A stretch of DNA of 64,000 bases. Source: Dictyostelium discoideum (lineage: Eukaryota). Shown one piece after another: positions 4,811 through 62,073 of the stretch. The notes under the pieces were generated by a model. That model saw nothing but the letters and a program-made list of their open reading frames with translations, was not told where the DNA came from and made no database searches. A program made the position numbers and the translations under genes. Within the stretch, counting starts at the first letter, position 1; each line of letters starts with the position of its first letter. The stretch covers positions 3,552,001 to 3,616,000 of the forward strand of contig CM000153.2 of assembly GCA_000004695.1 (NCBI GenBank), in the 5' to 3' direction.

Positions 4811-5996
4811 AAAAATTAATATATATATATATAATTTTTCCCCGATTTTTTTTTAAAAAAAAAAAAAAACAATATTAAATAAACTTACTTTTTTGAATTA
4901 TAATTCATTTCTGGATCAAATTGTGTAATTAAAAATGGTAAAAATGTTGAATATTCAATGATTATGGAAGAACTTTGATCGGATGGGAACTTACCTTCAG
5001 AAGAAGAGAAAGTATCAGCAACAGTTGCTGTTGCATAAATTACGGGTATGGTTGAAGAGGTGATATTGGCATGAGTCCAAATTGATGATAGAAATGATCT
5101 AGTTGGAATACGAATGAATATTGTATCACCCTTTGAAATTGATAATTTATTTGCTAAATTCTCTTGAACGTAAACTGTACCCTGTGGTGGAGCATCCAAT
5201 TTCCAATCACGACCTAATCCCATCCTCTTTTCACGTGCAGTATCAATCACAAACATCGATGCTTTACTTGCTACTGAATTACTACAAACTGATTCGAAAC
5301 AGTATGGTTCACATTGATTTGGCTCATCATGATATTTCCAAAGATTATCATTTGGATTTGTGTTACCGTTTGGACACGACTTTGCACTAACCACACTAAC
5401 AGTCCCATCGACTCTTGGTGAATGGTAACTATCATCTACTTCTTCTAATTCATATTGATTATTATTATTATTATCATCAAAATAACTTCCATTTGGTTCT
5501 TTATATGTACCAGCTAATAACTCTGATAACATTGTATAATTTAATTGATCTGATAATGTCCATGAACCAGGTGTCAACACCATATCCATTTCACCAACAC
5601 TTGCTTCTGACAAACTTAGGAATACCACTGGTGTGTTGGTGATGATGGAAACACATAGTGACACTATAAACACTACCAAGAAGCATGCGGAAAATCCTAA
5701 CAAATAGGATAACTTATTACGTAGATTGATTCTTAATGTATGTGAAAAGAAATGTTTCCAATGGTAGAGTAATGTTCTAAACCAATTCACTATCTTCACT
5801 TTTACTGTATCACCATTTATTGCATTTGATATACCCTTGAATTTACCATAAGGTTTACTTGATATTTTCTTCTTAATTTTACCATTGTCATCATAATTAT
5901 CTTTATTTTTTAAAAATGTTTGTTCTTCTGAATTTTCTATAAATTCATCAAAACTATCGCTACTACTACTACTACCATTACTTTTATTTATTTTTA

Positions 5997-7593: not shown

Positions 7594-7920
7594 CCAATAA
7601 ATAACAGAACATTTCTAATTCATTATTGAAAAAAATATAAAAAAAGTAATCAAATGAATATAATATAAGGTATAATTTTAATATTAGTTTTAATCTTAAA
7701 TTTTTTTTTTTTCCAATTAATATTCACAATCAAATTTATATTTAAAAAATAAAAACAGTAAATTTGGAAACAAATCAAAAGAAATAAATTTGTTTTTTGT
7801 TTTTTTTTTAAATAGTTTTATTTTAAATAATAAAAATAATAAAATAAAAAAAAAGTAATAATTAAATCTTTCAGTTCTTTTATTTTACTTTTTATTTTAC
7901 TTTTTTTTTTTTAAAAAAAA

Positions 7921-10900: not shown

Positions 10901-11643
10901 ATTTCTCTAGTTGTATCATTTAAAATTTGATCAAATAATGTATAATTTAATCTTATAGTAAAACCTTTTTCTAAATCTATTGAAAGTTGTTGTTTTCCTG
11001 ATATTATTAAATCTATATGATTAGCATCAGAATCTGCTTTACTTAAAAATATTAATGATATATTTGATAATACTGATAAACCAGTTGCAACTAAAATTAC
11101 TACTAAAAAACATGATATAAAACCAATACTATAATTCAATTTACTCCTTTTAATACCATTTATTGAATATTTAATTATTGAAAACCATTCTCCAATAGTT
11201 GTATTAAATCCAATATTTGTTAAATTTATTTGAATCTTTTTTAAAATAAATCCAAAATATTTTAAAAATTCTAAACTTCCAAAAATTAATATTATAAAAA
11301 ATTCCAAAAAAACAAAAATTCCTTCAATTATTATTTTAAGTTTATTGAAAAAATAATTCTCTTTTTTAATATTATTATTATTATTATTATTTATATTATC
11401 ATCATAATAATAAATATTGTCACCTTGACAATCATTTTCAAGTGATCCTTTTAAAATTGATAATTCAATTGGGTCACATTCACCAACACTCTCTCTCCAT
11501 TTATTATAAAATTTTTTATTAATTAAAATTGGATCATTCTCATTCCTATTATTTATAGAACTCTTTAAAATTGAACTATTTTCATTGATGATACTATAAT
11601 CACCATCATCATTATCATTCCCACTTGATTCATAATTATACAT
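7921..11643 (-). CDS. MacB/FtsX-type double-permease-like membrane protein, paralog A; 1240 aa, apparently a single exon.
   Basis: A full-length ORF. The first module, GIKRSKLNYSIGFISCFLVVILVATGLSVLSNISLIFLSKADSDANHIDLI, follows the MacB TM1 pattern (R.K..L..LGI.IGVA.V....G......S.I.S.G.N.I.I). It is followed by a ~400 aa Cys-containing extracytoplasmic domain and the FtsX core LLIYTTLMIDVDSMTFNNGVFRMLGAKFSFIIELIVSKTIIFTVPSIILGLIISQIF. The second module has a TM, a large domain and NQSKEIGILRSIGLSNFKIYKIYIIEAFTLSFGSCIIGIIIGLFISY. Confidence 0.8.
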   Translation of the reverse strand: MYNYESSGNDNDDGDYSIINENSSILKSSINNRNENDPILINKKFYNKWRESVGECDPIELSILKGSLENDCQGDNIYYYDDNINNNNNNNIKKENYFFNKLKIIIEGIFVFLEFFIILIFGSLEFLKYFGFILKKIQINLTNIGFNTTIGEWFSIIKYSINGIKRSKLNYSIGFISCFLVVILVATGLSVLSNISLIFLSKADSDANHIDLIISGKQQLSIDLEKGFTIRLNYTLFDQILNDTTREIKDDNRVGADEKNTHGLYSGSGISNKNSFFKNNSPRFNFIDTYGYPVSYCEKVVQDNIESRYFSNGSGLNCTESTCFINRCSGEGNHVFMGFQLLDFKKENDMGIKSTFGYGSQPKGTCLIIESLAQSIHANVGDEIFIIVPAVRLLSTLLTDSMISTTQIEKSPYIITKLKVNGFFNNTENPFELGFELGEIIPSVLIDIDSFYDSMVEQVNPTWNVDLMKNKNIKEYVENIVMKFPSPRLPMYYGTDLDKTLQRVNKVASKLVYKIGVGRVDISTPIMTELYKSNEVSSNLGQLLNLIVFVFLLLSILLIYTTLMIDVDSMTFNNGVFRMLGAKFSFIIELIVSKTIIFTVPSIILGLIISQIFLFIIIDQLKRFTNSDEISNYLTVDSIVYSILLGFLIPMVSLILPIRKALSFSLGEQLDTSRSNISSSHQITTIDKDSTDSEYRKYLSWIGLSLSALGIVGCILLPKLLLSGNFSSLLALLFGLLILVLISAIFLMMNFHLIISKTLVYIITLIDPFAKNIIRIILYKNLISHKKKNKSTMFMFGVSVSLIIIINCLYLIQVETANANEKQSFGSLLKIETGSFITREDLSNITLCLDRILDDENNDELDSYSLRSMKFSEFSQPDDKKSYVSDFARSVTLKSSLHAVGPTYFSEIMEDYFQVSSVSKNLKTDKDVDFNQNGDMTDLSTILYSKDSMNKLILTQSQKKLMYLDEKGGPDEFILSNYIEINNYRRIDYSSGRSQKHNVTFNWMGRNIVKPLAYLKTAGTFSVSEIPDEDLTQSVITSFPAYVGLSGGNIDSVRNIPVNLILIKPKSLDDDKIDSLQYKISKNCLFNKNSESPYIIRYKDSSNSSDKLNSLLFDFATVISIIISSFSLISSMFTSIKNQSKEIGILRSIGLSNFKIYKIYIIEAFTLSFGSCIIGIIIGLFISYIILLKQSMMDQQIIPFSIQWELIPILFISSLIVSIISVISPIRHLLKQSIITVLKD

Positions 11644-11651
11644 TTATCTGT

Positions 11652-11685
<34 letters not shown>

Positions 11686-11709
11686 GAAAATGGTTAGCAC
11701 TTCTTTCCG

Positions 11710-11743
<34 letters not shown>

Positions 11744-12506
11744 ACTGATTATTTTTTGACTTTTTTTTAAATTCTTTTATTTTTAATTCCCTAATTTTTT
11801 TTTTTTCTTTTATTTTTTTTTTTTCTATTTTTTTTTTTTTACTTTCTGATTATATTTTTTTTTTACTTTTTTTTTTTTTTACTTTCCGATTATTTTTTTT
11901 TTTTAAAAAAAAAAATAATTTATTGGTCTTTCAATTTTTTTTAAAAAGTAAAGAAAAAAAAAAAAAAAATAAGTGTAAAATTTAAAGTTTTACAAATGAT
12001 TGCAAATGTGTCTAGAAAATAAAAAAAAGAAAAAAAAAAAAAAAACGAAAATTAGTTTTGAAATAATCTTGTTTTTTAGGGATTTTCTTGAAAACACAAA
12101 AAACTATTAATCCCGAACCTTTAAAATTTTGAAAAATTAATTATTTTTTTTTTTTTTACTTTTATAATTATTGCTCCATTTTAAATCGATATTTTTATAT
12201 TTTTAGAAAAAAAAAAAAAAAATAAAAATAAAAGAATTAATAATGTAAAGAAAAAGCCAATTATAGATCAAGAGATTTGAGGGGAATGTTTTTTTTTTTT
12301 ATTATAATCATTTTTTTTATAAATTTCCTATTTTCTTGAAAAAAAAAAACTGCAAGGCACTGTAAAGAAAATTTTTTGGTCTGAGGAATAGTGTTTTATT
12401 TTTTTAATTTGGATTTTAATTAAAAAAAAATAAAAATAAAAATAAAAAAAATAATAAAAGCCTGGAAGAATTTGGACAATCACTTTGTGGTTCCAGAAAA
12501 AACTAT

Positions 12507-12567
12507 ATCATAAATTATAAAAAAAACCTCAGAAGATACAAGGAAATTCTTTGAAGATCCAATCACT

Positions 12568-12608
<41 letters not shown>

Positions 12609-12728
12609 ATAATTATCCATAAAATACAATAAAACAAATAAAATATTTTTATTCTTAATTTTTTGAAAATCTTCAAGGAATTTCCTTGTATCTTCTCAGA
12701 GGTTCTTTTTATAATTTATAATATAGTT
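12507..12728. repeat. Inverted repeat with ~55-bp arms (about 12507-12563 and 12672-12728) separated by a ~105-bp A-rich spacer, lying 25-240 bp 3' of the stop codon of permease paralog B.
   Basis: Left arm tatcataaattataaaaaaaacctcagaagatacaaggaaattctttgaagat. Reverse complement of right arm ataaattataaaaagaacctctgagaagatacaaggaaattccttgaagat. There are 3-4 mismatches over about 50 bp. Confidence 0.75.
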
Positions 12729-12750
12729 TTTTTTTTTTTTTTTAAAGAAA

Positions 12751-15700
12751 TTAATCTTTTAAAACTGTAATAATTGGTTGTTTTAATAAATGTCTAATTG
12801 GAGAAAATACAGAAATGATTGAGACAATTAAAGATGAAATGAAGAGTATAGGAATTAATTCCCATTGAATTGAAAATGGTATAATTTGTTGATTCATAAC
12901 TGATTGTTCCAATAGAATTGTATAGCTAATGAAAAGACCAATAATAATACCAATTATACAACTACCAAATGAAAGTGTAAAAGCTTCGATAATATAGATT
13001 TTATAGATTTTAAAATTTGATAAACCAATTGATCTTAGAATACCAATTTCTTTTGATTGATTTTTAATACTTGTAAACATTGATGAAATTAATGAAAATG
13101 ATGATATAATCATTGAGAGTACAGTTGCAAAATCAAAGAATAATGAATTTAATTTATCTGAACTATTTGATGAATCTTTATATCTAATTATATATGGACT
13201 TTCAGAGTTTTTATTAAATAAACAAGTTTCTGAAATTTTATATTGTAATGAATCAATTAAATCGTCATCTAATGATTTTGGTTTTAATAAAATTACGCTA
13301 ACTGGTATATTCCTAACTGAATCAATATTACCACCTGATAATCCGACATATGCTGGAAAAGAAGTAATTACACTTTGAGTAAGATCTTCATCCGGAATTT
13401 CAGATACACTAAATGTACCTGCAGTTTTTAAATATGCTAATGGTTTCATTACATTTCGACCAATCCAATTGAAGGTTACATTTTGTTGTTGATTTTTACC
13501 AGATGGATCAATTTTTGTATAATTATTAATTTCAATATAATTTGATAAAAGAAATTCATCTGGACCACCTTTTTCATCAAGATACATTAATTTCTTTTGA
13601 GATTGAGTTAATATTAATTTATTCATTGAATCTTTACTATATAAAATCGTTGATAAATCAGTCATATCACCATTTTGATTAAAATCAACATCTTTATCAG
13701 TTTTTAAATTTTTTGAAACTGATGAAACTTGAAAATAATCTTCCATTAATTCACTGAAATAAGTTGGACCAACTGCCCATAGTGATGATTTTAAAGTTTT
13801 AGTTTTAGCAAGATCAGAAACAATTGATTTCTTATCAGGTTGAGAAAATTCACTAAATTCCATTGACCTTAATGAATAACTATCCAAACCATTATTTTCA
13901 TCATCGATTATTCGATCTAAACATTGAGTTATATTTGATAAATCTTCCCTTTTTATAAAGGTACTGGTTTCAATCTTTAAAAGTGAACCAAAGTATTGTT
14001 TATTTGAAGCATTTGAAATTTCAACTTGAACTAAAAATAAACAATTAATTATAATTATTAAAGATACTGAAACACCAAACATAAACATTGTACTTTTATT
14101 CTTTTTCTTGTGAGAAATTAAATTTTTATATAAAATTATTCTAATAATATTTTTTGCAAAAGGATCTATTAAAGTAATAAGGTAAACTAATGTTTTTGAA
14201 ATGATTAAATGGAAATTCATCATTAAGAAAATTGCTGATATTAAAACTAAAATTAACAATCCAAATAATAATGCTAATAATGAACTAAAATTACCAGATA
14301 ATAATAATTTTGGTAATAAAAAACAACCAACTATACCTAAGGCGCTTAATGATAAACCAATCAATGATACAAACTTTCTATATTCTGAATCAGTTGAATC
14401 TTTATCAATTGTTGTAATTTGATGTGATGATGATATATTTGATCTACTAGTATCCAATTGCTCACCTAATGAAAAACTTAATGCTTTTCTAATTGGTAAT
14501 ATCAATGATACCATTGGTATTAGAAAACCAAGTAAAATTGAATAAACAATTGAATCTACTGTTAAATAATTTGAAATTTCATCTGAATTTGTAAAACGTT
14601 TTAATTGATCTATAATTATAAATAAAAAGATTTGAGAAATTATTAAACCTAATATAATTGATGGGACTGTGAATATTATTGTTTTTGAAACTATTAGCTC
14701 GATGATGAAACTAAATTTAGCACCTAACATTCTAAATACACCGTTATTAAATGTCATTGAATCCACATCAATCATTAATGTTGTATAAATTAAAAGAATT
14801 GATAATAAAAGGAATACAAAAACTATTAAATTTAATAATTGACCTAAATTACTTGAAACTTCGTTACTCTTGTATAATTCAGTCATTACTGGTGTTGAAA
14901 TATCAACTCTACCAACACCAATTTTGTAAATTAATTTTGAAGTAAATTCACTAACTCTTTGTAAAGTTTTATCTAAATCTGTACCATAATACATTGATAA
15001 TCTTGGTGATGGAAATTTCATAACTATATATTCGACATATTCTTTAATATTTCTATTTTTCATTAAATCTACATTCCATGATGGATTTACTTGTTCAACC
15101 ATTGAATCATAGAATGAGTCAATATCTATTAATATCGATGGTATTGTTTCACCCAATTCGAAACCTAGTTCATATGGATTCTCTGTATTATTGAAAAATC
15201 CATTAACTTTTAATTTTGTTATTATATATGGTGATTTTTCAATTTGAGTTGTTGAAATCATTGAATCTGTTAATAATGTTGATAATAATTCCACTGCTGG
15301 TACTATTATAAAAATTTCATCACCAATCTTTAATTCTGTTGCTTTAGCCAATAATTCTACCATTAAACATGTACCCTTTGGTTGTGATCCATAACCAAAT
15401 GTTGATTTTATACCCATATCATTCTCTTTTTTAAAATCTAGTAATTGGAAACCCATATATACATGTTCTCCATCACCACCGCATCTATTAATAAAACAAG
15501 TACTCTCTGTGCAATTTAAATCACTACCATTTGAAAAGTACCTTGCTTCAATATTATTTTCAACAATGTTTTCACAATAATTTACGGGATATCCATATGT
15601 ATCTATCATATGAAATCTTGGTGAATTATTTTTAAAATTTTTTTTTTTACTTCCACCACTACTTGAACTCTGGATTATAGTTTCACTAGCTCCAGCACTA

Positions 15701-16383
15701 TTTTCACCTTTTATTTCTATATTCTCTATTTTTTCAAAATTTAAAATTGCATTATTTAAAATTTTATCAAATAATGTATAATTTAATCTTATAGTAAAAC
15801 CTTTATCTAAATCTATTGACTGATGTTGTTTTCCTGATATTATTAAATCTATATGATTAGCATCAGAATCTGCTTTACTTAAAAATATTAATGATATATT
15901 TGATAATACTGATAAACCAGTTGCAACTAAAATTACTACTAAAAAACATGATATAAAACCAATACTATAATTTAATTTACTCCTTTTAATACCATTTATT
16001 GAATATTTAATTATTGAAAACCATTCTTCAATAATTGTATTAAATCCAATATTTTTTAAATTTATTTTAATTTTTTTTAAAATTAATCCAAAAAATTTAA
16101 ATTCTTTTTTTAAAAATTCCAAAGCTCCAATAATTATTGAGGTTAATAATTTAAAAAAATATAAAATTCCTTTGATTATTATTTTAAATTTATTATTTTT
16201 TTTAAAATGATAATCGTTACTGTCACAATCTTCATCAAATGATGTTAAAATTGCATAATTTTTAGTGATGGAATTATCGTCATCATCTCCATCCTCATCT
16301 TCATTACAGTTGTCATTTTCACTTGGTCCATAAAAATTATGCATTTCTATTCTTTTTTTTATTTTAAAATTATTGGTTAGCAT
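12751..16383 (-). CDS. MacB/FtsX-type double-permease-like membrane protein, paralog B; 1210 aa. Its N-terminal ~90 residues are unrelated to those of A and C.
   Basis: Very high identity to 7921-11643 and 17277-21032 across most of its length, with identical stretches such as KSPYIITKLKVNGFFNNTENP and LLIYTTLMIDVDSMTFNNGVFRMLGAKFSF. The N-terminus MLTNNFKIKKRIEMHNFYGPSEND... is different, and the first M could be preceded by a missed 5' exon. Confidence 0.8.
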   Translation of the reverse strand: MLTNNFKIKKRIEMHNFYGPSENDNCNEDEDGDDDDNSITKNYAILTSFDEDCDSNDYHFKKNNKFKIIIKGILYFFKLLTSIIIGALEFLKKEFKFFGLILKKIKINLKNIGFNTIIEEWFSIIKYSINGIKRSKLNYSIGFISCFLVVILVATGLSVLSNISLIFLSKADSDANHIDLIISGKQHQSIDLDKGFTIRLNYTLFDKILNNAILNFEKIENIEIKGENSAGASETIIQSSSSGGSKKKNFKNNSPRFHMIDTYGYPVNYCENIVENNIEARYFSNGSDLNCTESTCFINRCGGDGEHVYMGFQLLDFKKENDMGIKSTFGYGSQPKGTCLMVELLAKATELKIGDEIFIIVPAVELLSTLLTDSMISTTQIEKSPYIITKLKVNGFFNNTENPYELGFELGETIPSILIDIDSFYDSMVEQVNPSWNVDLMKNRNIKEYVEYIVMKFPSPRLSMYYGTDLDKTLQRVSEFTSKLIYKIGVGRVDISTPVMTELYKSNEVSSNLGQLLNLIVFVFLLLSILLIYTTLMIDVDSMTFNNGVFRMLGAKFSFIIELIVSKTIIFTVPSIILGLIISQIFLFIIIDQLKRFTNSDEISNYLTVDSIVYSILLGFLIPMVSLILPIRKALSFSLGEQLDTSRSNISSSHQITTIDKDSTDSEYRKFVSLIGLSLSALGIVGCFLLPKLLLSGNFSSLLALLFGLLILVLISAIFLMMNFHLIISKTLVYLITLIDPFAKNIIRIILYKNLISHKKKNKSTMFMFGVSVSLIIIINCLFLVQVEISNASNKQYFGSLLKIETSTFIKREDLSNITQCLDRIIDDENNGLDSYSLRSMEFSEFSQPDKKSIVSDLAKTKTLKSSLWAVGPTYFSELMEDYFQVSSVSKNLKTDKDVDFNQNGDMTDLSTILYSKDSMNKLILTQSQKKLMYLDEKGGPDEFLLSNYIEINNYTKIDPSGKNQQQNVTFNWIGRNVMKPLAYLKTAGTFSVSEIPDEDLTQSVITSFPAYVGLSGGNIDSVRNIPVSVILLKPKSLDDDLIDSLQYKISETCLFNKNSESPYIIRYKDSSNSSDKLNSLFFDFATVLSMIISSFSLISSMFTSIKNQSKEIGILRSIGLSNFKIYKIYIIEAFTLSFGSCIIGIIIGLFISYTILLEQSVMNQQIIPFSIQWELIPILFISSLIVSIISVFSPIRHLLKQPIITVLKD

Positions 16384-16794
16384 TTTTTTTTTTTTCTTAT
16401 CTAAAACTTAGATGTTATTTTTATTTTTATTTTTATTTTTATTTTGAAAGAAAATAATAATTTATAAAGTCTTTTCTTTTTTTTTTTATAATTAAAAAAA
16501 GAAAATAAATACAGCTTAAATTTTCATTTTATGTTGCTGACATTGCTTCATTGTAAACCTATCTTCATTTTCAAAAAAAGAAAAGGTGGCACTTCAAATA
16601 TTTTATTTTATTATAAAGAAAAAGATAAAAAACTATTGTCTGTCTGGCTTTTTTTAAGAACTAAGAAAAGTTTTTTGAAAATTTGGTTGATCTAGCCTTT
16701 TTTTTTTTTGTTATTTTTTGGTTTTTATGATAACGATCGAGAAAAAAAAAGTTGTTTATTTTCTAAAAAAAAAAAAAAAAACCAGGTGAGTCAC

Positions 16795-16895
16795 AAGAAA
16801 ATTATGTTTGTGTGAAGGGAGTCCCTAAGAAAATAAAAGTTAAAAAAAAGAGGCGACAAACCCACCAGCGCGGCACAAAATTACTTTTCACTTTA
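16795..16895. repeat. Copy 1 of a ~90-bp dispersed repeat of unknown family (GC-richer than its surroundings).
   Basis: ...gggagtccctaagaaaataaaag..aagaggcgacaaacccaccagcgcggcacaaaattacttttcac... aligns with 57957-58075 (...ggggagtcacatggaaaataaaa..aagaggcaacaaacccaacgctgcataaaatttcttttcac...). Confidence 0.55.
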
Positions 16896-17135
16896 GTTTT
16901 TTTGAAATTTGCATTTTTTTTTGATAAAGATTCAGAAAAAAAAAAATGTTTTTAAAAAAAAAAATGAAATGAAAATAAAAAAAATATATAAAAGCCTGGT
17001 AGAATTTGTATAATCAATAAAAGAAGTTCAGTTACATATAATGAAAAAATTATTTTTAAAACTTTTTACTTTTATTTTTAATTTTATTATTATTTTGATT
17101 TTAAAAAAAAAAAATTATTATCTGATTGTCTTAGG

Positions 17136-17171
<36 letters not shown>

Positions 17172-17276
17172 ATCACCCTTGTTATGATTGATTTCGATTC
17201 GATTCGATTTGATTTAATTTGATATGATTTATTATTATATTATTACTATTTTTATTATTTTTATTTTAAAATAAAA

Positions 17277-20200
17277 TTAATCTTTTAAAACTGTAATAAT
17301 TGGTTTCTTTAATAAATGTCTAATTGGGGAAACTACAGAAATGATTGAGACAATTAAAGATGAAATGAAGAGTATAGGAATTAATTCCCATTGAATTGAA
17401 AATGGTATAATTTGTTGATTCATAACTGATTGTTCTAATAGAATTGTATAGCTAATGAAAAGACCAATAATAATACCAATTATACAACTACCAAATGAAA
17501 GTGTAAAAGCTTCAAAAATATAGATTTTATAGATTTTAAAATTTGATAGACCAATTGATCTTAGAATACCAATTTCTTTTGATTGATTTTTAATATTTGT
17601 AAACATTGATGAAATTAATGAAAATGATGATATAATCATTGAGAGTACTGTTGCAAAATCAAAGAATAATGAATTTAATTTATCTGAACTGTTTGATGAA
17701 TCTTTATATCTAATTATATAAGGACCTGTTGATTTTAGATTAGATAAACATTTTTGACTAATTTTTAATCTTAATGAATCAATTAAATCATAATCTAATG
17801 ATTTTGGTTTAATTAAAATTACACTAACTGGTATATTCCTAACCGAGTCGATATTACCACCTGATAACCCAACATATGCTGGAAATGAGGCTATTACACT
17901 TTGAGTTGCACCTTTATCTGGAATCTCAGATACACTAAATGTACCTGCAGTTTTTAAATATGCTAATGGTTTCATTAAATAACGACCCATCCAATTTAAT
18001 GTTACATTTTGTTGTTGATTTTTGCCAGATGGATCAATTTTTGTATAATTATTAATTTCAATATAATTTGATAATAAATATTCATCACTACCACCTTCTT
18101 GATCAAGATACAATAATTTCTTTTGAGATTGAGTTAATATTAATTTATTCATTGAATCTTTACTATATAAAATCGTTGATAAATCAGTCATATCACCATT
18201 TTGATTAAAATCAACATCTTTATCAGTTTTTAAATTTTCTGAAACTGATGAAACTTGAAAATAATCTTCCATTAATTCACTGAAATAAGTTGGACCAACT
18301 GCAAATAATGATGATTTTAAAATTCTAGTTCTACCAAGATCAGAAACCGTTGATTTCTTATTATCAGGTTGAGAAAACTCACTAAACTCCATTGATCTTA
18401 ATGAATAACTATCTAAACCATTATTATCATCCATTAAACCATCTAAACATTGGGTAATATGTGATAAATCTTCTCTAAGTAAAAATGTTTCTGTTTCAAT
18501 CTTTAAAAGTGAACCATAGTATTGTTTTCTAGAAGCATTTGCAGTTTCAACTTGAACTAAATATAAACAACTAATTGTAATAATTAAAGATACAGAAATA
18601 CCAAACATAAACATTGTACCTTTATTCTTTTTCTTGTGAGAAATTAAATTTTTATATAAAATTCTTCTAATAATATATTTTGCACCAGGATCGATTAAAG
18701 TAATAAGGTAAACTAATGTTTTTGAAATGATTAAATGGAAATTCATCATTAAGAAAATTGCTGATATTAAAACTAAAATTAACAATCCAAATAATAATGC
18801 TAATAATGAACTGACATCACCGGATAATAATAATTTTGGTAATAAAAAACATACCACTATACCAAAAGCACTAATTGATAAACCAATCAATGATACAGAC
18901 TTTTTAAATTCTGCATCTTTTGAACCTTTATCAATTGTTGTAATTTGATGTGATGATATTTTTGATCTACTAGTATCCAATTGTTGATTTAATGAAAAAC
19001 TTAATGCTTTTCTAATTGGTAATATCAATGATACCATTGGTATTAGAAAACCAAACAAAATTGAAAATAGAATTGAATTTACTGTTAAATACTTTGAAAT
19101 ATCTGCTGAATTTGATATACTCTTTAATTGATCTACGACTATAACTAAAAAGATTTGTGAAATTATTAAACCTAATATAATTGATGGTATTGTGAAAATT
19201 ATTGTTTTTGAAACTATTAGCTCGATGATGAAACTAAATTTAGCACCTAACATTCTAAATACACCGTTATTAAATGTCATTGAATCCACATCAATCATTA
19301 ATGTTGTATAAATTAAAAGAATTGATAATAAAAGGAATACAAAAACTATAATATTTAATAATTGACCTAAATTATTTGAAACATCTTTGCTCTTGTATAA
19401 TTCAGTCATTACTGGTGTTGAAATATCAACTCTACCAACACCAATTTTGTAAATTAATTTTGAGCAATAATCACCCACACGTTGTAAAGTTTTATCTAAA
19501 TCTGTACCATAATACATTGATAATCTTGGTGATGGAAATTTCATAACTATATATTCGACATATTCTTTTAAATTTCTATTTTTCATTAAATCTACATTCC
19601 ATGTTGGATTTACTTGTTCAACCATTGAATCATAGAATGAGTCAATATCAATTAATATAGATGGTATTGTTTCACCCAATTCAAAACCTAATTCATAACC
19701 TAATTCGTATGGATTCTCTGTATTATTGAAAAATCCATTAACTTTTAATTTTGTTATTATATATGGTGATTTTTCAATTTGAGTTGTTGAAATCATTGAA
19801 TCTGTTAATAAAGTTGATAATAATTTAACTGCTGGTACTTTTAAAAAAATTTCATCACCAATCTTTAATTCTATTCTTTTAGCCAATGATTCTATCATTA
19901 AACATGTACCCTTTGGTTGTGATCCATAACCAAATGTTGATTTTATACCCATATCATTCTCTTTTTTAAAATCTAGTAATTGGAAACCCATATATACATG
20001 TTCTCCATCACCACCACATCTATTAATAAAACAAGTACTCTCTGTGCAATTTAAATCACTACCATTTGAAAAGTACCTTGCTTCAATATTATTTTCAACA
20101 ATGTTTTCACAATAATTTACGGGATATCCAAATGCATCTATCATATGAAATCTTGGTGAATTATAATCAAAATTATTAAAACCACTACTATCACCACCAA

Positions 20201-20685
20201 TAAATAAACTATTGAAACTATTAGCTTCATTCAATTCTATTAATTTTTCAAAATTTAAAGTTGCATCATTTAAAAGTTGATCAATTAATGTATAATTTAA
20301 TCTGACATCAATAATTTCACCTAAATCTATTGATTGTTGTTTGCCTGATATTATTAAATCAATACCATAGGCATCAGAATCTGCTTTACTTAAAAATATT
20401 AATGATATATTTGATAATACTGATAAACCAGTTGCAACTAAAATTACTACTAAAAAACATGATATAAAACCAATACTATAATTCAATTTACTCCTTTTAA
20501 TACCATTTATTGAATATTTAATTATTGAAAACCATTCTTCAGTAATTTTAAAAAATCCAATATTTCTTAAAATTAATTTAATCTTTTTTAAAATTATTTT
20601 AATCCTTTTTAAAATTGATTTAAAAAATTCTAAAATTATTATTATTATTTTTATTATTATTATTTTAAATTTTTTTATATATAAA

Positions 20686-48763: not shown

Positions 48764-50423
48764 TTATTGGCAATAGTATTTAAGTAAAGGTTTATCAAGT
48801 GGTAAAAATTTATAGTCATGGGCTGTCATTAAAAGTTTAAGACTTTCTGGTGCCATATCATGTGTAAATGGATTGATTGTTTCACCTATTACGATATGGT
48901 TGATTGAATTTGGAAAAAGATCTTTGGATAATGGAAATTTATAAACAAGAAGTTCAAAAAACTCTAGTTCACTTGGGATTGATTCTTTAGTAAGTTTTTG
49001 GTCAATATCCTCTATTTTTAAATGACTCAATGATTCAGGATATTTAAATTTTGGATCCAGTTTCACTTTTATTAGAGATAATGAAAATATTGATTTTGGT
49101 AATTGATCATTTCCAATAACTTGAGAAACATTGCAAAGTACCAATTTATGAATACCATCAGTTGGGAAAAAGCTTGAATCAAATGGAAAATCTAAATTTT
49201 TTAAAGTTAACTCTCTGATTGAGCAATTTGATTTTGGCAAGGAAGTTTTATTAAAAATATGAGATTTGATACCATTAACAGTTAAACATCTAACATTACA
49301 AAATATATCTGGAGTAAGTTTATGGTTATAACCTCTTTCAAAATATAAATGTTGAACACTGATAGATGGCATTATATCTTTAGTAACAGCAAAATCTACC
49401 TGGCCAAAAACCATTTCCCGCACTTGTAAACCATATGAAAAGGGTGAAATTTTATGAGAGTATCCATTAAAAAACCTAACCTTTTCACCAAAGAAAATAT
49501 CTGGTACTGGATGGACAATATTACCAATTCCAACCGATCTTTCATAGTTATCAATCATCCAAGCATTCAATTTATGTTTGTACCCCCATCCAATATTTAC
49601 ACGATAATCTGTTGGTAAATCTTTAAATAGTTCTTTTGTAATTGGTTTGGAAATGTTTAGAATATTTATATCATGCTTTAGAGTACAAAATCCAAGTGGT
49701 GGAAACAATTTACTAATAACATTGAATTTGTAACCCTCACAAAAATAAATGCCTTTTGGGGAAATTGGTGGGTAAATTTTAAAAGGAGGTCTTAAACTAT
49801 TTTCATCCAAGGTGAATTTTGTTTTTATTATTAACAAAGAATCCAAATTGTCTATTATACTTTCATTTGTAATTTGATGAGAATAATTACCATCAAACAA
49901 TAAAGTTTTTATTGTGCCTTTTTCTAATAATTCTTTATTCAAAGGATAACCCATATCACCACCAACACCCAATTGATAAACGAAAGGTTGAACTATTTCC
50001 TTTGTAACTTGATTTTTATAGCCATTGAAACCCATAAATTTAATAGTATTTGGTATACTTTCACTGGTTAGTGCATAGGTAATATTAAAAAATATAGCAC
50101 CAATAACTGAACTTGGAATCATTTCTTTTTTAATATAATGTGCATAACCATCCAAAAAATAAATAAATTTAACATTTTTGTGAAAATTTATTTCATTCAA
50201 ATTTGGACTTTCACTTGATAATGCAACTCTTTCAAATGATTGTGGAACAACACCACCTTTTGTTAAATAAATAAAATCATCTTTTTCTATTAATTTTTAA
50301 AAAAATTAATATTATTAATATTTAAATCAATTTTTTTCCAAAAAATAAAAATTTAAAAACAAATCAATACAAACCTAAAAACAATTTTTCAGGAATAAAA
50401 AAATTATTATTAATCAAACTCAT
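48764..50423 (-). CDS. FNIP-repeat protein of the Dictyostelium FNIP repeat family. Minus-strand exons about 50423-50375 and 50286-48764.
   Basis: Repeated ~22-aa units with the F(N/D)GY..(H/N)Q(I/V/L) signature (KFMGFNGYKNQV, LLFDGNYSHQI, IYFCEGYKFNV, VRFFNGYSHKI, LYFERGYNHKL). The ORF-track M at 50200 is internal. The ORF continues upstream to the acceptor at 50287-50288 (...EKDDFIYLTKGGVVPQSFERVALSSESPNLNEINFH). A 49-nt first exon, ATGAGTTTGATTAATAATAATTTTTTTATTCCTGAAAAATTGTTTTTAG|gtttgt, joins in phase 1. Confidence 0.7.
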
Positions 50424-51000: not shown

Positions 51001-51408
51001 TTGTTGTTGGGCAATTATTTTATTGATATTCAAATATTGAATTAAAAATTTATTATTGCAAATAGTTTTTTTCATCTTGATAACAGATTTGGAAACTACA
51101 AACACTCGAGTTCTTTTTTCAAATTGGGGAGAAAAGAGTAAAAAAATAAAAATAAAAAAAAAATAAAAATTAAATTAAATTTGGTGAAAGTTGTTTGTAC
51201 AATCGATTGTATATTGAGATGTAAAAGCACATTTGAATAAAAAAAAAAAATAAAAAAAATAAATAAAATTAATTATTTTAATTGTTTTTATTATATGCTT
51301 CTTATATTTTTTTTTGAGTATAAAAGAGTTTTCTTTTTTTTTATTTTTTTTTTATTTTATTTTTATTTATAGAATCAATAATAATAATAAATAAGTAAAA
51401 ATAAAAAA

Positions 51409-52797
51409 ATGAAATTAATAAATCTTGTAATTTATTTTTTTCTTTTTGGAATAGTATATTCTCAACCACCACAACCACACTATGGTGTATTTGAATTATC
51501 AGCATTACGTGGTGGAGAAAATAAACTTCTGTATAGGGGTGCCAATCTAAAAGCTTTTTCTCAAACACCAGCTAGACCAGGAGTGATTGTTACTTTTTTC
51601 AGATACAATGGAGGTATTGACATTTACTATTCCCATAGGATACAAATTGTTGCAAATCTTGAAGAGTCAGCGCGTGTAATGACCCAAACTCCAAATAATA
51701 TGGCTACTAGTGGTAGAATTGTTTCATATGCTTATCAAGAGATATCTACCCAGGTTTTCAATGGACTAAATGTTGGCAATTTGAATGCTCTAATCAATGG
51801 ACCCAATTTAGTAACACCAGCTGGGCCATTTATTCCACATGGAAGGTTGATTAATGTCCTTGCACTTTTGGCGAGATGGATTAGATTAAATTTTTCAACA
51901 AATATACAAATCATTGAATTCATTGATGATCATCCAAGTTTTCCAAAACCTTCTGAAAGCTATGATAGCAATGGTGGTGGCTCTGGAGTTTCCAATGATT
52001 TAGAACTTGCTTTTTACCAAAAGAATCCAAATGGTAACTATTATCTTGAGGAAAGAAAACATATTAATGAAGAATCTGACAATCCTGCAGGATTATTGGG
52101 ATTAGTTAGTGAAGGTATTAAAGAGGCTGCCAACGGTGTTAAAGTCACTGGTGTAAATATTTGGAATAAAGCCAAAAGTATTTTCAGCCATGGTAAAGAA
52201 GCTGCCAGTAGTAAAACAAGTGCTGCCGTTGTAAAAGTTGAAAATGAAGGTAAAGCAGTTGTCAAAGCTGGTGAATCCGTTGTAAGTACTGTGAAAAATG
52301 ATGGTAAGGCAGTTGTCAATGCTGGCGAATCTGTTGTAACCTCTGTGAAAAATGAAGGTAAGGCAGTTGTCAATGCTGGTGAATCCGTTGTAACCTCTGT
52401 AAAAAATAATGGTAAGGCAGTTGTCAATGCTGGTGAATCCGTTGTAACCTCTGTGAAAAATGAAGGTAAGGCAGTTGTCAATGCTGGTGGATCTGTTGTA
52501 ACCTCTGTAAAAAATAATGGTAAGGCAGTTGTCAATGCTGGTGAAACTGTTGTTCAAACTGTGAAAAAAGAAGCCTCAGTCATTGTGAAAACTGGTGAAA
52601 CTGTTATTGATTCCACAAGAAAAGGAGGCGCTGCATTTGTTTCTGAAGGTGGTGCTGCAATTGCTGATATTGAAAAAAATGGTGCACAATTTGCAAGAGG
52701 TGTTGTAGAAATGGGTGAAGCAGCTGGTGATGTTGTTGAAGAAATGGCTGAAGTCTCAGCTGGTAGGTTAATAGTTGAAGTTCTTGAAATTGTATAA
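51409..52797 (+). CDS. Secreted protein of 462 aa. It has a signal peptide, an N-terminal ~190-aa globular domain of unknown function and a C-terminal array of about seven 20-aa tandem repeats (GKAVVNAGESVVTSVKNEGK).
   Basis: MKLINLVIYFFLFGIVYSQ signal. The repeats are encoded by a 60-bp minisatellite and are synuclein/LEA-like amphipathic Lys/Val/Gly-rich units. Confidence 0.65.
   Translation: MKLINLVIYFFLFGIVYSQPPQPHYGVFELSALRGGENKLLYRGANLKAFSQTPARPGVIVTFFRYNGGIDIYYSHRIQIVANLEESARVMTQTPNNMATSGRIVSYAYQEISTQVFNGLNVGNLNALINGPNLVTPAGPFIPHGRLINVLALLARWIRLNFSTNIQIIEFIDDHPSFPKPSESYDSNGGGSGVSNDLELAFYQKNPNGNYYLEERKHINEESDNPAGLLGLVSEGIKEAANGVKVTGVNIWNKAKSIFSHGKEAASSKTSAAVVKVENEGKAVVKAGESVVSTVKNDGKAVVNAGESVVTSVKNEGKAVVNAGESVVTSVKNNGKAVVNAGESVVTSVKNEGKAVVNAGGSVVTSVKNNGKAVVNAGETVVQTVKKEASVIVKTGETVIDSTRKGGAAFVSEGGAAIADIEKNGAQFARGVVEMGEAAGDVVEEMAEVSAGRLIVEVLEIV
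52225..52560. repeat. 60-bp coding minisatellite, about 5.5 near-identical units.
   Basis: gaaggtaaggcagttgtcaatgctggtgaatccgttgtaacctctgtgaaaaat repeated, with synonymous or near-synonymous changes (gaatcc/gaatct, aatgaa/aataat). Confidence 0.85.
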
Positions 52798-53126: not shown

Positions 53127-54231
53127 ATGATTAAATCAAGTGATCCATTAATTCCACCATTTAGATTTGCAATAGTTGAAGAAGGGTTATTAAGGGGATC
53201 ATATCCAACAGATAGAAATTTTCGATTTTTAAAGAGACTAAAGTTAAAGACGATTGTATCATTAACACCAAAGCCACCAACTAAATCATTTTATACATTT
53301 TGTGAAAGATATAATACCACCACGAAACATTTTACAGTTAGCAAATTTAAAGATGATGTGACATTATCAGCAGCACAAGTAGCACAATTATTGGAAATGA
53401 TGATCGAACCTAACAATTTACCAATGTATATTCATTGTTTAGATGGTGCAAATGTAACAGGTACAATATTTATGTGTTTAAGAAAACTTCAAAACTGGAA
53501 TCTTTCATCAATATTTCAAGAATTCACAAGATTCACTAGAGGTGGTACAATCGCATCTTCGGAGGCTGAATTTGTTGAAACTTTCAAGGCTGAAATCGAT
53601 GTTTGTCCACATATTCCACCTTGGTTATGGCAAGGTATTAGAATGGTTAAACATCCAACTTTAAAATTAAGATTAGTAGGTGGTGATCAACAACCTGCAC
53701 TTTTAGCTTTAAATAATAATTCCTCCTCTTCAACAACAAATCCCAATGCAACATCTACTATAACTAATCCTTCATCAATAAGTACATCATCTTTGCCAAG
53801 TTCTTCAACGAATACCCCAAATAGATCAACTGTTGATGATACTGGTAATTTATTACAAAAACTAATAGAATTAAATTTAAATAATCAAAATAGTAATGAA
53901 AGTGGTATGCAGCTTGAAAATAACGATGATAATAATAATAGTGATAATAATAATTATAATAATAATAGTAATAATAATAATAGTAATAATAATAATAGTA
54001 ATAATAATAGTGATACAATCGATTATAAAAATTTAAATAAACCATTAAAAATTAGTTCAGAAGAAAGCGAAAAAGAAAAGAATACAAATGAGTCATTCTC
54101 TTCAACAATATATACGGTATCATCAACTACAATAATTAATAATAACGATAATAATAAAAATATTGATAATAATGATGGTAATAATAGTAATGATAATGAT
54201 AATGATAATAGTAATAATAATAATAATAATG

Positions 54232-54324
<93 letters not shown>

Positions 54325-54965
54325 GTATCAATAATAATGATAGCAACGAACCAAATGATAATAATAATAATAATAACAATAATAATAATAACGATAATAA
54401 TAACGATAATAATAGTAACACAACACCTTTAATTTCATCAATAACCTCAACAAGTATTTTGAACGTCTCATCTACAACTGTACAACCAATATCACAACCA
54501 CAACCAATATCACAACCACCACAAACACAACCAATATCACAACCACAACCACAACCCCAACCCCAACCACAACAATCAAGTACGCCAAATATATCAAGTA
54601 TTTTAACACAAAGTCCAAAAGTAACATCATCACCTTTAAATTCAAGTATTATATTACCAAGTGGCAGTGGTAGTGGTGGTAGTAGTAGTAGTGGAAGTAG
54701 TATTAGTAAAGATAAAAAGAAAAAAGATGATATTAAACTTCAATTTGATTCTGGTAAATTTTTAACACAAAAGGAATCTAGATCCATTGAAGCCTTATCA
54801 CTTGAAAGAACTGTAAAAAATGTAACACCATCCAACTCCAATACTTCCACAACAACAACAACTACCACTACAACAACTACTACTTTTACTTCACAATCAC
54901 AAAATCAATCACCAAAAAATTCACACAGAGCAATCTCTTCATCACAAAATCCAAATTTAAATTAA
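53127..54965 (+). CDS. Tyrosine-phosphatase-like protein of the Y_phosphatase2 (Siw14/OCA, PFA-DSP) family. The invariant CX5R arginine appears to be missing (predicted pseudophosphatase). It has a long Asn/Ser/Gln-rich C-terminal extension.
   Basis: MIKSSDPLIPPFRFAIVEEGLLRGSYPTDRNFRFLKRLKLKTIVSLTP matches the family N-terminal signature PPxNF..V...LYRS..P...NF.FL..L.LKTI..L. The active-site region IHCLDGANVTGT has Cys and Gly but Val at the Arg position. The ORF-track start at 53103 lies in an upstream AT run. Confidence 0.6.
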
Positions 54966-59178: not shown

Positions 59179-59728
59179 TAGCAATTGTTTTAGAATGTTA
59201 TAATGAAAATAGTGCAAGAACATTTTATATGGAATTATATAGAAGACCATTAGATACTAGTGATGTTGTTTGTTGGAAATCATTGATTACAATTCATAAG
59301 GTTGTACAAGAGGGACCAAAGAATGTATTAAGTGATACAATTAGTAGAGTTGGATGGTTTGAGAATTTGAGAGATCATTGGGCACGTTTTGATAATAGAG
59401 GATTTGGTAGATTGGTAGCAGACTATTGTACATTAATCATTGATAAAATACGTTTTCATCAAGCACATCCAGAATTTGATGGTGGATTATCCTTGGAGAA
59501 CTATAGCAAGAATCATAGACCCGAGTCAATTGAAGTTGACAAAGGTTTACAAACTGTAAATCGTTTAATGGATTTAACTGATGCTGTCTTTAGAATGCAT
59601 AATTCAATCGTATCAGCAACACCTTATAATGATTGTAAAACTTCTGCTTTCATTCCATTAGTTTTAGAATCTTATGCTATCTATATTTTAGTTGTACATT
59701 TTTTAACAAATTTAATTGATAGTAATGT

Positions 59729-59770
<42 letters not shown>

Positions 59771-62073
59771 ATGGTTATTAATATTTAAAATTTTAAATTT
59801 TAACAGAGGTTGATAATAAAGAAGTTATGGATTTTTCAATTAAAAGATTTTATGGTCAATATCAAACATTGAGAAACTTTTTTTTAAATGCAAGTGCAAT
59901 TACAAGTGTATCTAGTGTTATTGCAGTACCAAATTTACCACCAGATCCTCCAAAGTTTATTAGAAAAGTTAGAGAGGCACCAAAGGCCAAACCACAGGCA
60001 ATTCCACCACCAGTTGTAAAGGAACCACCAACACCACCACCTGAACAAATTCCAGTTCCAGTACCAACACCTGTATTCATTCGTCAAACGGTACCAGTGG
60101 TTTATGGCGCACCTTATGGTATGCAACAACAACAACAAGATAATAGTATGTGGGGTCAGTTTGGTTCCAATCAACCATTTGATCCAAATTTACAATTACA
60201 ACAACAACAAGCTGCATTATTACAACAACAACAGCTACAACAACAACAACTTTTACAACAACAACAGCTACAGCAACAGCTACAACAACAACAATTATTA
60301 CAACAACAACAAGCTGCTGCTTTGGCTGCCGCTCAGCAACAACAGCAACAACAGCAATCACCACCTCAAATTTCACCTCAATCATCAGCTCAATGGGTAA
60401 CATTTGGTGATGATGCACCAACAAGACAACGTTCAACTAGTACACCACCAGCTTTGGAAAAGAAAGAAGCATCAGTTGATAAACCAGCTTCACCACCAAA
60501 ATCAACAACAGCCAGTTCCAATACTGATAGTCAAGGAAAAACTAGAGTTATCACTAAAATCATTACAAAGACTGTCAACAATACACAAGAGATCAATGCT
60601 CTCAAAGCAAGAATTGAGGAATTGGAAAGATTACTTCAAGAGGAACAAGATAAAAATAAAGCACTCACATTGAAATTATCGGAACGTGAAGCTATGATTC
60701 AAGAGGTAACATCAGCAAGAAAGAGATTACAAGATATGAGTTCAACCAATGATAATTACACTGCCGAAGTGGTTAAACAAAATGAACAATTACGTGAACA
60801 ACTCATTGCCATCAGAGATTGGACTGAACGTACAAGACTTCAAAGATTAGAGAAAGAGTTTGGTTTGGCTGCTGGTTCAATTCAACAATATCTCTCACAA
60901 TTGGATAATCCAAACAATATGGGTAATCAAGAGGCAACTCATCAATTGGTTATCGAGGATTTGGTTAATCATTTACAACAAGCTCAACGTTTATCCGATC
61001 TTTGTAATCAAGAGGGTGATGATTTAGAAATGGATATTTTCTCTGCGGTCAATACAGTTTCAAACTCTTTGAAGAGTTTATTCTTTGATGCCAAGGGTTC
61101 ATCAAGATTAATTTTAGATCCAGAGTCACAAAGTAAATTTATGGATGCCGCAAGAAAAATTGGTGCTCTCACTCAAAATCTTTTCGAATCAATTCGACTC
61201 CAAGGTGGTCAATGTAATGATGATGAAGATCGTAAGAGATTGGCAAACAATTTTGCTTCCCTTAAAACTGGTATCAATAATTTGGATGCATTGGCTCAAC
61301 AAGCTGACGCTGAAAGAATTGAAGCCGAGAAGAAATATTTAGAGAATGGTTTTGATTTGGATGATGTTGCTGAACGTGAACTATTGGCTGCCGCTAAAAC
61401 CATTGAAGATGCTGCAAACTCATTATTGGCCGCAAAATCAAAGAGAGCTCCAAAGAAGGAGGGTGATTCACCAGATGTTGCTGAGGCAATCCTTGAGGCT
61501 GCTATGGCAATCACTGGTGCTACTTCCACATTGGTTGGTGCCGCCACTTTAGCACAAAGAGAACGTGTCGAAAAGGGTAGAACAAGTGATGGTGGTCCAC
61601 TCTATAGAAAGGATCCAACTTGGGCTGAAGGTTTAATCTCTGCTGCAAAATCTGTTGCCCAAGCCACTAAAGCTTTGGTAGATAATGCCAACAAGACAGC
61701 ATCTGGTCAAGAGATCCCAGGTGGTACAGAAGAAGCTCTCATTGCAACTTCGATGGCTGTAACTGCTGCAACTTCTCAATTGGTCTCTGCTTGTAAATCT
61801 AAATCTGATATCAATAGTCCTTCTCAACATAAACTTTCAAATGCTGCCAAATCCGTATCCAATGCAACCAATCTTTTAGTGGCTGCAGCCAAAGCTGTCG
61901 CTGCTAAAGTCGCCTCTGAAGAGGATATCGATTTCGATAAACTCACTGTCACTGGTTATAAAGTTAAAGAAATGGAACAACAAATGGCAATTCTCAGATT
62001 AGAAAAAGAATTAGAAGTCGCTAGAAAAGGTTTAAGTGTTATTAGAAAGAAACAATATGACGAAAATCAATAA
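58989..62073 (+). CDS. hipA: Hip1/Hip1R/Sla2 homolog with an N-terminal ANTH domain, central coiled coil and polyQ, and a C-terminal talin-like I/LWEQ (THATCH) domain. Exons about 58989-59064, 59182-~59730 and ~59808-62073.
   Basis: Exon 1, MTEFEAIVHKATNSKITAPKRKHVR|gtaaat. Exon 2, after aaatag, is (S)IVLECYNENSARTFYMELYRRPLDTSDVVCWKSLITIHKVVQEGPKNVLSDTISRVGWFENLRDHWARF... It is collinear with human HIP1R APVKEKHARRIILGTHHEKGAFTFW...SWKFCHVLHKVLRDGHPNVLHDCQRYRSNIREIGDLWGHL. Exon 3 is ...FSIKRFYGQYQTLRNFF (compare HEQFHSLRNFF)... The C-terminus YRKDPTWAEGLISAAKSVAQATKALVDNANK matches HIP1R YAKNSRWTEGLISASKAVGWGATQLVEAADK. The exact exon 2/3 junction is ambiguous, either GATA|gtaatg...acag|AG or GAT AGT AAT|gtattt...cagag|. 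Confidence 0.85.

Follow-up and report, generated by a model that had tools for sequence, protein, structure and literature searches.

The passenger domains of the bacterial autotransporters AIDA-I, Ag43 and TibA form right-handed beta-helix rods, built from imperfect tandem repeats of ∼19 residues, that lie outside the cell and follow a signal peptide. The modules of autotransporters and their self-association by a ‘Velcro-like handshake’ have been summarised (PMC6668479). Here, we compare these systems with DDB_G0285697, a gene of Dictyostelium discoideum that lies in a 64,000-nucleotide stretch of contig CM000153.2 (positions 3,552,001 to 3,616,000, forward strand; hereafter the window). 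Its complete, single-exon coding sequence occupies 51409..52797 (+), appears in the list of open reading frames (ORFs) as an uninterrupted frame of 462 amino acids plus the stop, and in a protein search returned 100% identity with full coverage to NCBI ‘hypothetical protein DDB_G0285697 [Dictyostelium discoideum AX4]’. An earlier note on this DNA had singled out 51409-52797, and these positions are exactly the coding sequence with its stop codon. The gene probably encodes a lineage-specific secreted protein of development, and modelling predicts that the C-terminal half of the product is beta-helical.

What is already known about DDB_G0285697 is brief, as it is annotated as hypothetical and has appeared once before as a transcript marker. 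The only publication that we found naming the gene is a study of the transcription factor Mef2A, in which RNA sequencing (RNA-seq) of 16-h finger-stage structures counted 2256 reads for the wild type against only 5 for the mef2A null (PMC3640940). With a 451-fold difference, confirmed by quantitative reverse-transcription PCR, it is the most Mef2A-dependent transcript of the finger stage (PMC3640940). Because of these wild-type and mutant read counts, it is clear that DDB_G0285697 is transcribed and developmentally regulated, and it is moderately abundant. The same study marked the promoter as bearing a Mef2-related site and placed the gene alongside the tgr genes, among membrane proteins that may act in adhesion or signalling (PMC3640940).

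Signal peptide, repeat array and predicted fold

The protein begins with a predicted signal peptide, residues 1-18 (MKLINLVIYFFLFGIVYS; 51409..51462, +), which is followed by Q and is recognised by its hydrophobicity, by small residues at -3 and -1, and by its conservation in orthologues. The top three 19-residue Kyte-Doolittle windows start at residues 1-3 (maximum 1.52), and the same scan found no second hydrophobic segment anywhere in the protein. All six orthologues share the pattern MK-hydrophobic(14-15)-small-x-small after one start correction. The NCBI model of P0004 (D. cf. discoideum) starts 16 codons too late, and an in-frame upstream ATG (L004 2953-3000) restores its signal peptide, MKLIYLIIYFFLFG. 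From these features we infer that the peptide is cleaved, and the product is probably secreted, as the earlier note had supposed. The literature label of ‘putative membrane protein’ has the signal peptide as its sole basis.

The C-terminal half is a strong tandem repeat, as had been noted before, with Tandem Repeats Finder reporting 52241-52553 at a period of 54 bp (5.8 copies, 90% matches, no indels, score 500). The unit is therefore 54 bp or 18 residues (consensus GKAVVNAGESVVTSVKNE) and not the 60 bp and 20 residues proposed earlier, a unit too long by two residues, the excess being the GK of the unit that follows. Within each unit the motif N-x-G-x-x-V-V occurs twice, at spacings of 7 and 11, which replaces the 11-plus-9 periodicity first suggested. 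The array opens with a degenerate unit in register with the rest, residues 263-280 (KEAASSKTSAAVVKVENE; 52195..52248, +), which has 33-43% nucleotide identity to the core units. The core consists of six near-identical units, residues 281-388 (52249..52572, +), with 80-96% nucleotide identity in the unit matrix. Three degenerate units follow, also in register, at residues 389-442 (ASVIVKTGETVIDSTRKG / GAAFVSEGGAAIADIEKN / GAQFARGVVEMGEAAGDV; 52573..52734, +). The seventh unit retains 52-61% nucleotide identity to the core, and those at 407-442, like that at 263-280, are further degenerate units, so that an earlier count of seven repeats stands only if the degenerate seventh is included. The described alternation of N and E between units is real and stems from a 108-bp, two-unit super-repeat, in which the 52303/52411 and 52357/52465 pairs are each 96% identical. 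The view that units differ mostly at synonymous or conservative positions is only partly borne out: all pairs of core units taken together, 29 of the codon differences are synonymous and 48 non-synonymous.

Several lines of modelling point to a beta-helix for this array. AlphaFold places two strands in each unit (4 and 6-7 residues) over residues 274-429, with the first strand at 274-277 inside the degenerate unit 263-280, and the block means of its predicted local distance difference test score (pLDDT) are 54-84 over residues ∼270-400. The top Foldseek matches to this model are all beta-solenoids. A profile of the family searched against the PDB matched Ag43 (3.3e-6), Ag43b and an AidA-I family adhesin, over a range of 3.3e-6 to 8.4e-5, while a compact profile without identical units ranked TibA (0.0033) and Ag43 (0.0071) first. 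In NCBIfam, the matches were to AIDA-I (3e-6) and Ag43 (3e-6 to 1e-4). AIDA-I, Ag43 and TibA are the only significant-looking sequence matches and also the best structural matches to the model, and units 389-442 bear the best resemblance to the AIDA/TibA motif GG[SA]A..[TD].[VI]..N.G.Q.[VF]. In control searches, reversed, unit-permuted and shuffled repeat regions never matched AIDA-I or Ag43.

On this basis, we tentatively favour a beta-helical C-terminal half that serves as a self-associating scaffold. Mef2A-dependent transcription turns the gene on in multicellular development, with high levels at the 16-h finger stage, and the signal peptide would lead the product into the secretory pathway before being cleaved. 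The mature protein, of ∼46.7 kDa, would comprise an orphan globular head (∼24-175), a conserved 40-residue motif and the repeat rod. Each 18-residue unit would supply a single rung of a right-handed parallel beta-helix, with Gly/Asn turns (N-x-G) at two fixed positions per rung. A beta-helix rises by 4.8 Å per rung, and the ∼nine rungs predicted across residues ∼270-430 would give a rod ∼4 nm long. By analogy with the self-associating autotransporters, the rod may be a rigid self-associating or matrix-binding extracellular scaffold, to which the fast-evolving head would supply specificity. Unequal recombination would lengthen or shorten the rod by 54 or 108 bp at a time; its units are homogenised within lineages.

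A number of observations weigh against this proposal. A periodic scrambled control reached 9.5e-5 against an unrelated family, which means that repeats inflate significance, and the hidden Markov model (HMM) scores of ∼25 bits compare with family cut-offs of 1200. The AlphaFold and HMM matches are not independent, and both may just be reading the spacing of the glycines. The fold prediction rests on a six-sequence alignment, and AlphaFold favours beta-solenoids for near-perfect repeats. The register is imperfect, as the inward I/V of an AIDA rung falls on Lys16 unless the gap is moved, and one orthologue has a 14-residue unit in the middle of its array. The units also contain adjacent hydrophobic pairs (V4V5 and V11V12) and a polar pair at 13/14, with Asp/Glu at either position; for these adjacent pairs an amphipathic helix is a simpler fit than strict in/out strand alternation, and the hydrophobic moment at 100° is very strong. 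Lastly, the gene is not listed in the supplementary tables of three papers, among them a cell-type RNA-seq and a life-cycle proteome paper, although these tables are possibly incomplete.

Helical periodicity of the array

The hydrophobic moment leads to the alternative that survives best, which we nonetheless regard as unlikely, namely a long amphipathic alpha-helix that forms only conditionally. Such an array would be a coil in water and fold on lipid, a membrane or an air-water interface in the manner of alpha-synuclein, perilipin-4, group-3 LEA proteins and apolipoproteins, with the coating or protection of membranes or spores as a possible role. An 18-residue unit, divided 7+11, corresponds to exactly five helical turns. 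Over the whole C-terminal half the moment peaks at 99-100° in six of six orthologues, at 0.28-0.34 compared with shuffled maxima of 0.14-0.19 (z about 7-15), and the peak holds even in the two orthologues with short, diverged arrays. For residues 277-442 the moment is 0.41 against 0.158±0.017 in shuffles, ∼15 standard deviations above. The phase stays within ∼30° over ∼160 residues and persists in non-identical units and across indels of 7 and 4 residues, although the indels are explicable by slippage between the two sub-motifs. On a helical wheel, V and G form a contiguous face that is bordered by Lys and Glu. The composition is close to that of alpha-synuclein 1-95 (V+I+T 31% in both, Gly 13% against 15%, Leu 0% against 2%), with a similar mean helix propensity. 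The protein contains no Cys, and its C-terminal 227 residues contain no Pro.

Alpha-synuclein 1-95, taken as a positive control, peaks at 98°. The solved beta-helix of TibA (regular segment, residues 76-180; 19-mers, 8+11), however, reaches its highest value on the Eisenberg scale at 95° (0.356, compared with 0.216±0.028), and for this reason a periodicity of ∼100° does not discriminate between a helix and a beta-helix. The 100° moment and the 7+11 substructure are accordingly no strong evidence for a helix; the amphipathic periodicity of the general functional class is present, yet non-specific. Other results favour the beta-helix over the helix. AlphaFold picked strands and not helices, and the turn motifs N-G, D-G and A-G are conserved in the array. 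In the middle of the proposed hydrophobic face, Asp takes the place of Gly8 in one unit and Glu is substituted at position 1 in another. Alignment with human alpha-synuclein by hhalign gave a probability of 0.16%, and Pfam and PDB profile searches returned no synuclein, apolipoprotein, LEA or perilipin match; in Pfam, nothing matched DDB_G0285697 at E ≤ 10 except five unrelated weak families. Of the resemblance to synuclein, LEA and apolipoprotein repeats suggested in the earlier note, the ∼100° periodicity is real, while sequence similarity is absent and the 20-residue, 11+9 unit on which it was drawn is wrong.

Membership of the named helical families was considered separately and rejected. 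The array has a period of 18 and not the KTKEGV-type 11-residue repeats of the synuclein family, and no synuclein chain appeared in the PDB profile searches. Group-3 LEA proteins and exchangeable apolipoproteins have repeats of 11 or 22 residues, whereas the unit here has 18 residues and is 21% Val. A left-handed beta-helix was also set aside, as no match to its hexapeptide [LIV]-G-x4, repeated three times in an 18-residue turn, was found in Pfam and the 60°/120° harmonics are not the leading peaks.

Orthologues, turnover of the array and the N-terminal half

In a collection of 5.8 billion proteins DDB_G0285697 has only five relatives, all in the D. discoideum clade: two D. discoideum-complex lineages, one assembly labelled ‘D. 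discoideum’, D. citrinum and D. firmibasis. Word-indexed searches with the C-terminal half and with its compact profile added no new relatives. In the window, the gene is flanked by a gene for an FNIP-repeat protein (48764-50200, -) and by one for a Y_phosphatase2-type phosphatase with long Asn/Thr/Gln homopolymer tracts (53127-54965, +), and this order is kept in other Dictyostelium genomes. At each of the five orthologous loci the gene lies upstream of the Y_phosphatase2-type gene, and at four of them it also follows the FNIP-repeat gene; at the fifth (L003) only a short gene model without a Pfam hit stands in that place. The five relatives are positional orthologues, with synteny across six genomes. 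The L003 assembly (GCA_054859355.1), labelled ‘Dictyostelium discoideum’, is probably a cryptic sibling lineage, since its synonymous divergence (dS) from AX4 is ∼0.10 even in the phosphatase gene, far above the within-species expectation.

Measured between two conserved anchors, the array spans 147 residues in AX4 and two sister lineages, and ∼161 in P0004, where a different unit type (…KKEASIIVKTGETAVDT…) has been amplified. It spans 75 residues in D. citrinum, exactly four units fewer than in AX4, and 68 in D. firmibasis, about four units fewer. The changes in length are mostly of whole units, and a fixed repeat number, which the earlier note had named as counting against its view, does not hold between lineages. 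In their DNA, core units of one genome share 92-93% identity, compared with 86-88% between AX4 or P0002 and P0003. Units at the same position in different genomes are no more alike than units at different positions (0.875 and 0.880), so there is no positional orthology. In P0003, for its part, GAA->CAA (E->Q) is present in all core-type units, together with a fixed GAT (D). This is the signature of an array homogenised or repeatedly re-amplified within lineages, and the concerted evolution proposed earlier is upheld.

Rates of substitution bear on a further explanation, that DDB_G0285697 is a young, weakly constrained orphan in which the repeat is an expansion, intrinsically disordered or of low complexity, that has neither a defined fold nor a specific role. 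Resemblance to a beta-helix or a helix would then be a by-product of a minisatellite rich in Val, Gly, Lys and Glu. The confinement of the family to a narrow clade, the fast turnover of units and labile array length, and the failure of AlphaFold on the N-terminal half are all in keeping with such an origin. By a simple Nei-Gojobori estimate, which is rough in so AT-biased a genome, the ratio of non-synonymous to synonymous substitution (dN/dS) is 0.33-0.82 overall in comparisons with AX4, and it is near 1 (0.76-1.16) for the N-terminal domain inside the discoideum complex. However, the ratio falls to 0.18-0.26 between D. citrinum and D. firmibasis and to 0.15-0.33 for the conserved motif in distant pairs, values that indicate purifying selection. 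Six genomes, at a dS of up to 0.9, preserve the reading frame, the signal peptide and the synteny; expression is high and tightly regulated, and Gly and hydrophobic residues keep their positions even where units have diverged. With these points against it, we consider an expansion without fold or role to be quite unlikely. For the adjacent phosphatase gene, comparison with the discoideum-complex genomes gives a dS of 0.08-0.13, and comparison with D. citrinum and D. firmibasis one of 0.34-0.42; the dS of DDB_G0285697 ranges from comparable to ∼twofold above these values. The core of the phosphatase hardly changes (dN/dS ≤0.02), whereas DDB_G0285697 is constrained yet evolving 20-40 times faster than this neighbour. 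As it evolves fast, no relatives are detectable further away.

The N-terminal half begins, after the signal peptide, with an orphan domain at residues 24-175 (51478..51933, +), followed by the most conserved stretch of this half, residues 176-218 (HPSFPKPSESYDSNGGGSGVSNDLELAFYQKNPNGNYYLEERK; 51934..52062, +), marked by runs of invariant alignment columns. Neither Pfam nor NCBIfam yielded a credible match for the N-terminal half, whether with the protein itself or with any of the six orthologues. A profile of the six orthologous N-domains, used in an exhaustive HMMER search of 1.84 billion representative proteins, found its own family and one repeat protein, which was judged spurious as a 24-residue Gly/Ser low-complexity motif had been matched seven times. 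The best match of the N-domain in the PDB had an E value of 0.035. AlphaFold gives the N-domain alone a pLDDT of 30, and two runs concur on the N-terminal half only for a beta-hairpin at ∼58-81 and helices at 114-130 and 148-161. The domain was described earlier as one that could not be placed, and it still has no relative in these collections. Horizontal acquisition of the gene or its N-domain (e.g., from bacterial prey) as a toxin-like or adhesin-derived module, an origin that the earlier note had entertained, is very improbable, as the only sign of it is the weak resemblance of the repeat to bacterial AIDA/Ag43/TibA passengers, and against it stand a G+C content at third codon positions of 18.6% with native, host-typical codon usage, the syntenic locus in six genomes, a short ancestral array, an N-domain without bacterial or other relatives among the 1.84 billion representatives, no match for the C-terminal half in the 5.8 billion proteins even at E ≤ 10, and no autotransporter-barrel or toxin family match in Pfam and NCBIfam. 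The ORF 51409..52797 has a higher G+C content (37%) than the window (22%), because of its Gly, Ala and Val codons and not because of a foreign origin.

Within the conserved stretch, residues 181-218 (51949-52062) form a weak, ungapped alignment to EGF-A of the low-density lipoprotein (LDL) receptor in which all six Cys positions are replaced. The match is to the LDL receptor only, with E values of 0.035-0.05 for the profile and 0.55 for the single sequence, and the reversed control of this region gave no EGF-A match. An EGF-like or calcium-binding EGF domain was rejected here, as the protein lacks Cys and with it the six conserved cysteines, and the resemblance may be chance or a cysteine-less relic.

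A linker and conserved lead-in connect this stretch to the array (residues 219-262; 52063..52194, +); the orthologue alignment shows that they include the invariant NGVK.TGVNIWNKAK.IF, and AlphaFold predicts a short helix at residues 251-258 with low confidence. After the array comes an acidic C-terminal tail, residues 443-462 (VEEMAEVSAGRLIVEVLEIV; 52735..52794, +), in which AGR...E is conserved in the alignment and AlphaFold predicts helices, again with low confidence. A Kyte-Doolittle scan found no transmembrane or glycosylphosphatidylinositol-like hydrophobic C-terminus in this tail. On the antisense strand of the array, 52041-52557 (-), are two long ORFs of 164 and 151 residues that are themselves repetitive; they look like by-products of the repeat, with no sign of being genes.

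Neighbourhood and comparison with known systems

Upstream of the gene, a weak MEF2-consensus-like site, TTATTTATAG, matches the pattern YTAWWWWTAR at 51363..51372 (+), 37 nucleotides before the ATG. The window as a whole holds 147 matches to this pattern. Shuffles that preserve dinucleotides hold 105±11, and not one of 100 reached 147. With so many matches in a window of 22% G+C, the site is uninformative alone. The excess is probably due to AT-rich simple repeats and a 4.8-kb triplication rather than to regulation. That triplication lies at 7899-20557, where three tandem copies of a 4.5-4.8 kb segment are 78-100% identical, with start-to-start distances of ∼4821-4836 and 4511-4535 bp. It is presumably a recent segmental triplication carrying paralogous genes. 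The only G+C-rich stretch of the window is at 60-62 kb (39.5% G+C). It holds two ORFs, in 59229-62073 (+), which from their sequences appear to encode an ANTH-like N-terminus and a talin-like I/LWEQ C-terminus, and probably represent a Sla2/HIP1-type gene split by a short intron.

New here are the correct repeat anatomy, the dynamics of the array with its lineage-specific expansion, the fast evolution of the protein, the true-orphan N-domain and the prediction of an AIDA/Ag43-like beta-helix. If the beta-helix is confirmed, DDB_G0285697 would offer a rare eukaryotic adhesin-type rod that arose from a young, still-expanding minisatellite, is joined to a domain without relatives, and owes its expression almost wholly to a single developmental transcription factor. 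If the amphipathic helix proves correct instead, a secreted protein of synuclein-like composition would likewise be unusual. With the beta-helix, the gene would provide a handle on the role of Mef2A in the multicellular stage and a clean case of the birth and lengthening of a lineage-specific structural protein, which should interest Dictyostelium developmental biologists and students of repeat-protein birth. A literature search found nothing linking Dictyostelium to beta-helix adhesins, and another on 18-residue amphipathic repeats yielded nothing of use. In a bolder version, which we rate as improbable, a secreted AIDA/Ag43-like beta-helix that arose de novo or from a long-eroded bacterial fragment would mediate homophilic ‘Velcro’ cohesion or partner discrimination under MEF2 control. 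The protein would then be a eukaryotic counterpart of the bacterial auto-aggregation adhesins, with rod length and head diverging fast between sibling lineages.

Set against known systems, DDB_G0285697 shares Mef2A-dependent developmental expression with other Mef2A-dependent Dictyostelium genes. It has no sequence relation to the Tgr (IPT/TIG), Cys-rich spore-coat or Ecm proteins, and it has neither Cys nor a transmembrane segment. It differs from the extracellular repeat beta-solenoids that serve as matrix or surface material (curli CsgA, FapC and the ice-binding beta-solenoids) in repeat lengths and motifs, with no sequence match. Like alpha-synuclein, perilipin-4 and the group-3 LEA proteins, the array is rich in Val, Gly, Ala, Lys, Glu and Thr and poor in Leu and Pro, with a periodicity of ∼100°. 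Those proteins, however, are cytosolic and have units of 11 or 33 residues, whereas DDB_G0285697 has a signal peptide and predicted strands.

The closest comparison is with AIDA-I, Ag43 and TibA. DDB_G0285697 differs from them in a unit of 18 residues and not 19, in a single rather than a double Gly in most turns, in the lack of an autochaperone, in its orphan head, and in a eukaryotic host whose codon usage it shares. Beyond the array lie only ∼20-35 residues, and a C-terminal beta-barrel translocator is lacking, with no match to an autotransporter barrel in Pfam or NCBIfam. Membership of the autotransporter family was therefore rejected, as there is no barrel, the scores lie far below the cut-offs, and Dictyostelium is not a Gram-negative host. 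While homology is not established, the likeness extends to imperfect tandem repeats with two Gly-containing turns per unit (8+11 in the passengers, 7+11 here) and, by prediction, to a right-handed beta-helix rod that would be extracellular after a signal peptide. DDB_G0285697 is predicted to look like, and possibly to work like, these autotransporters.

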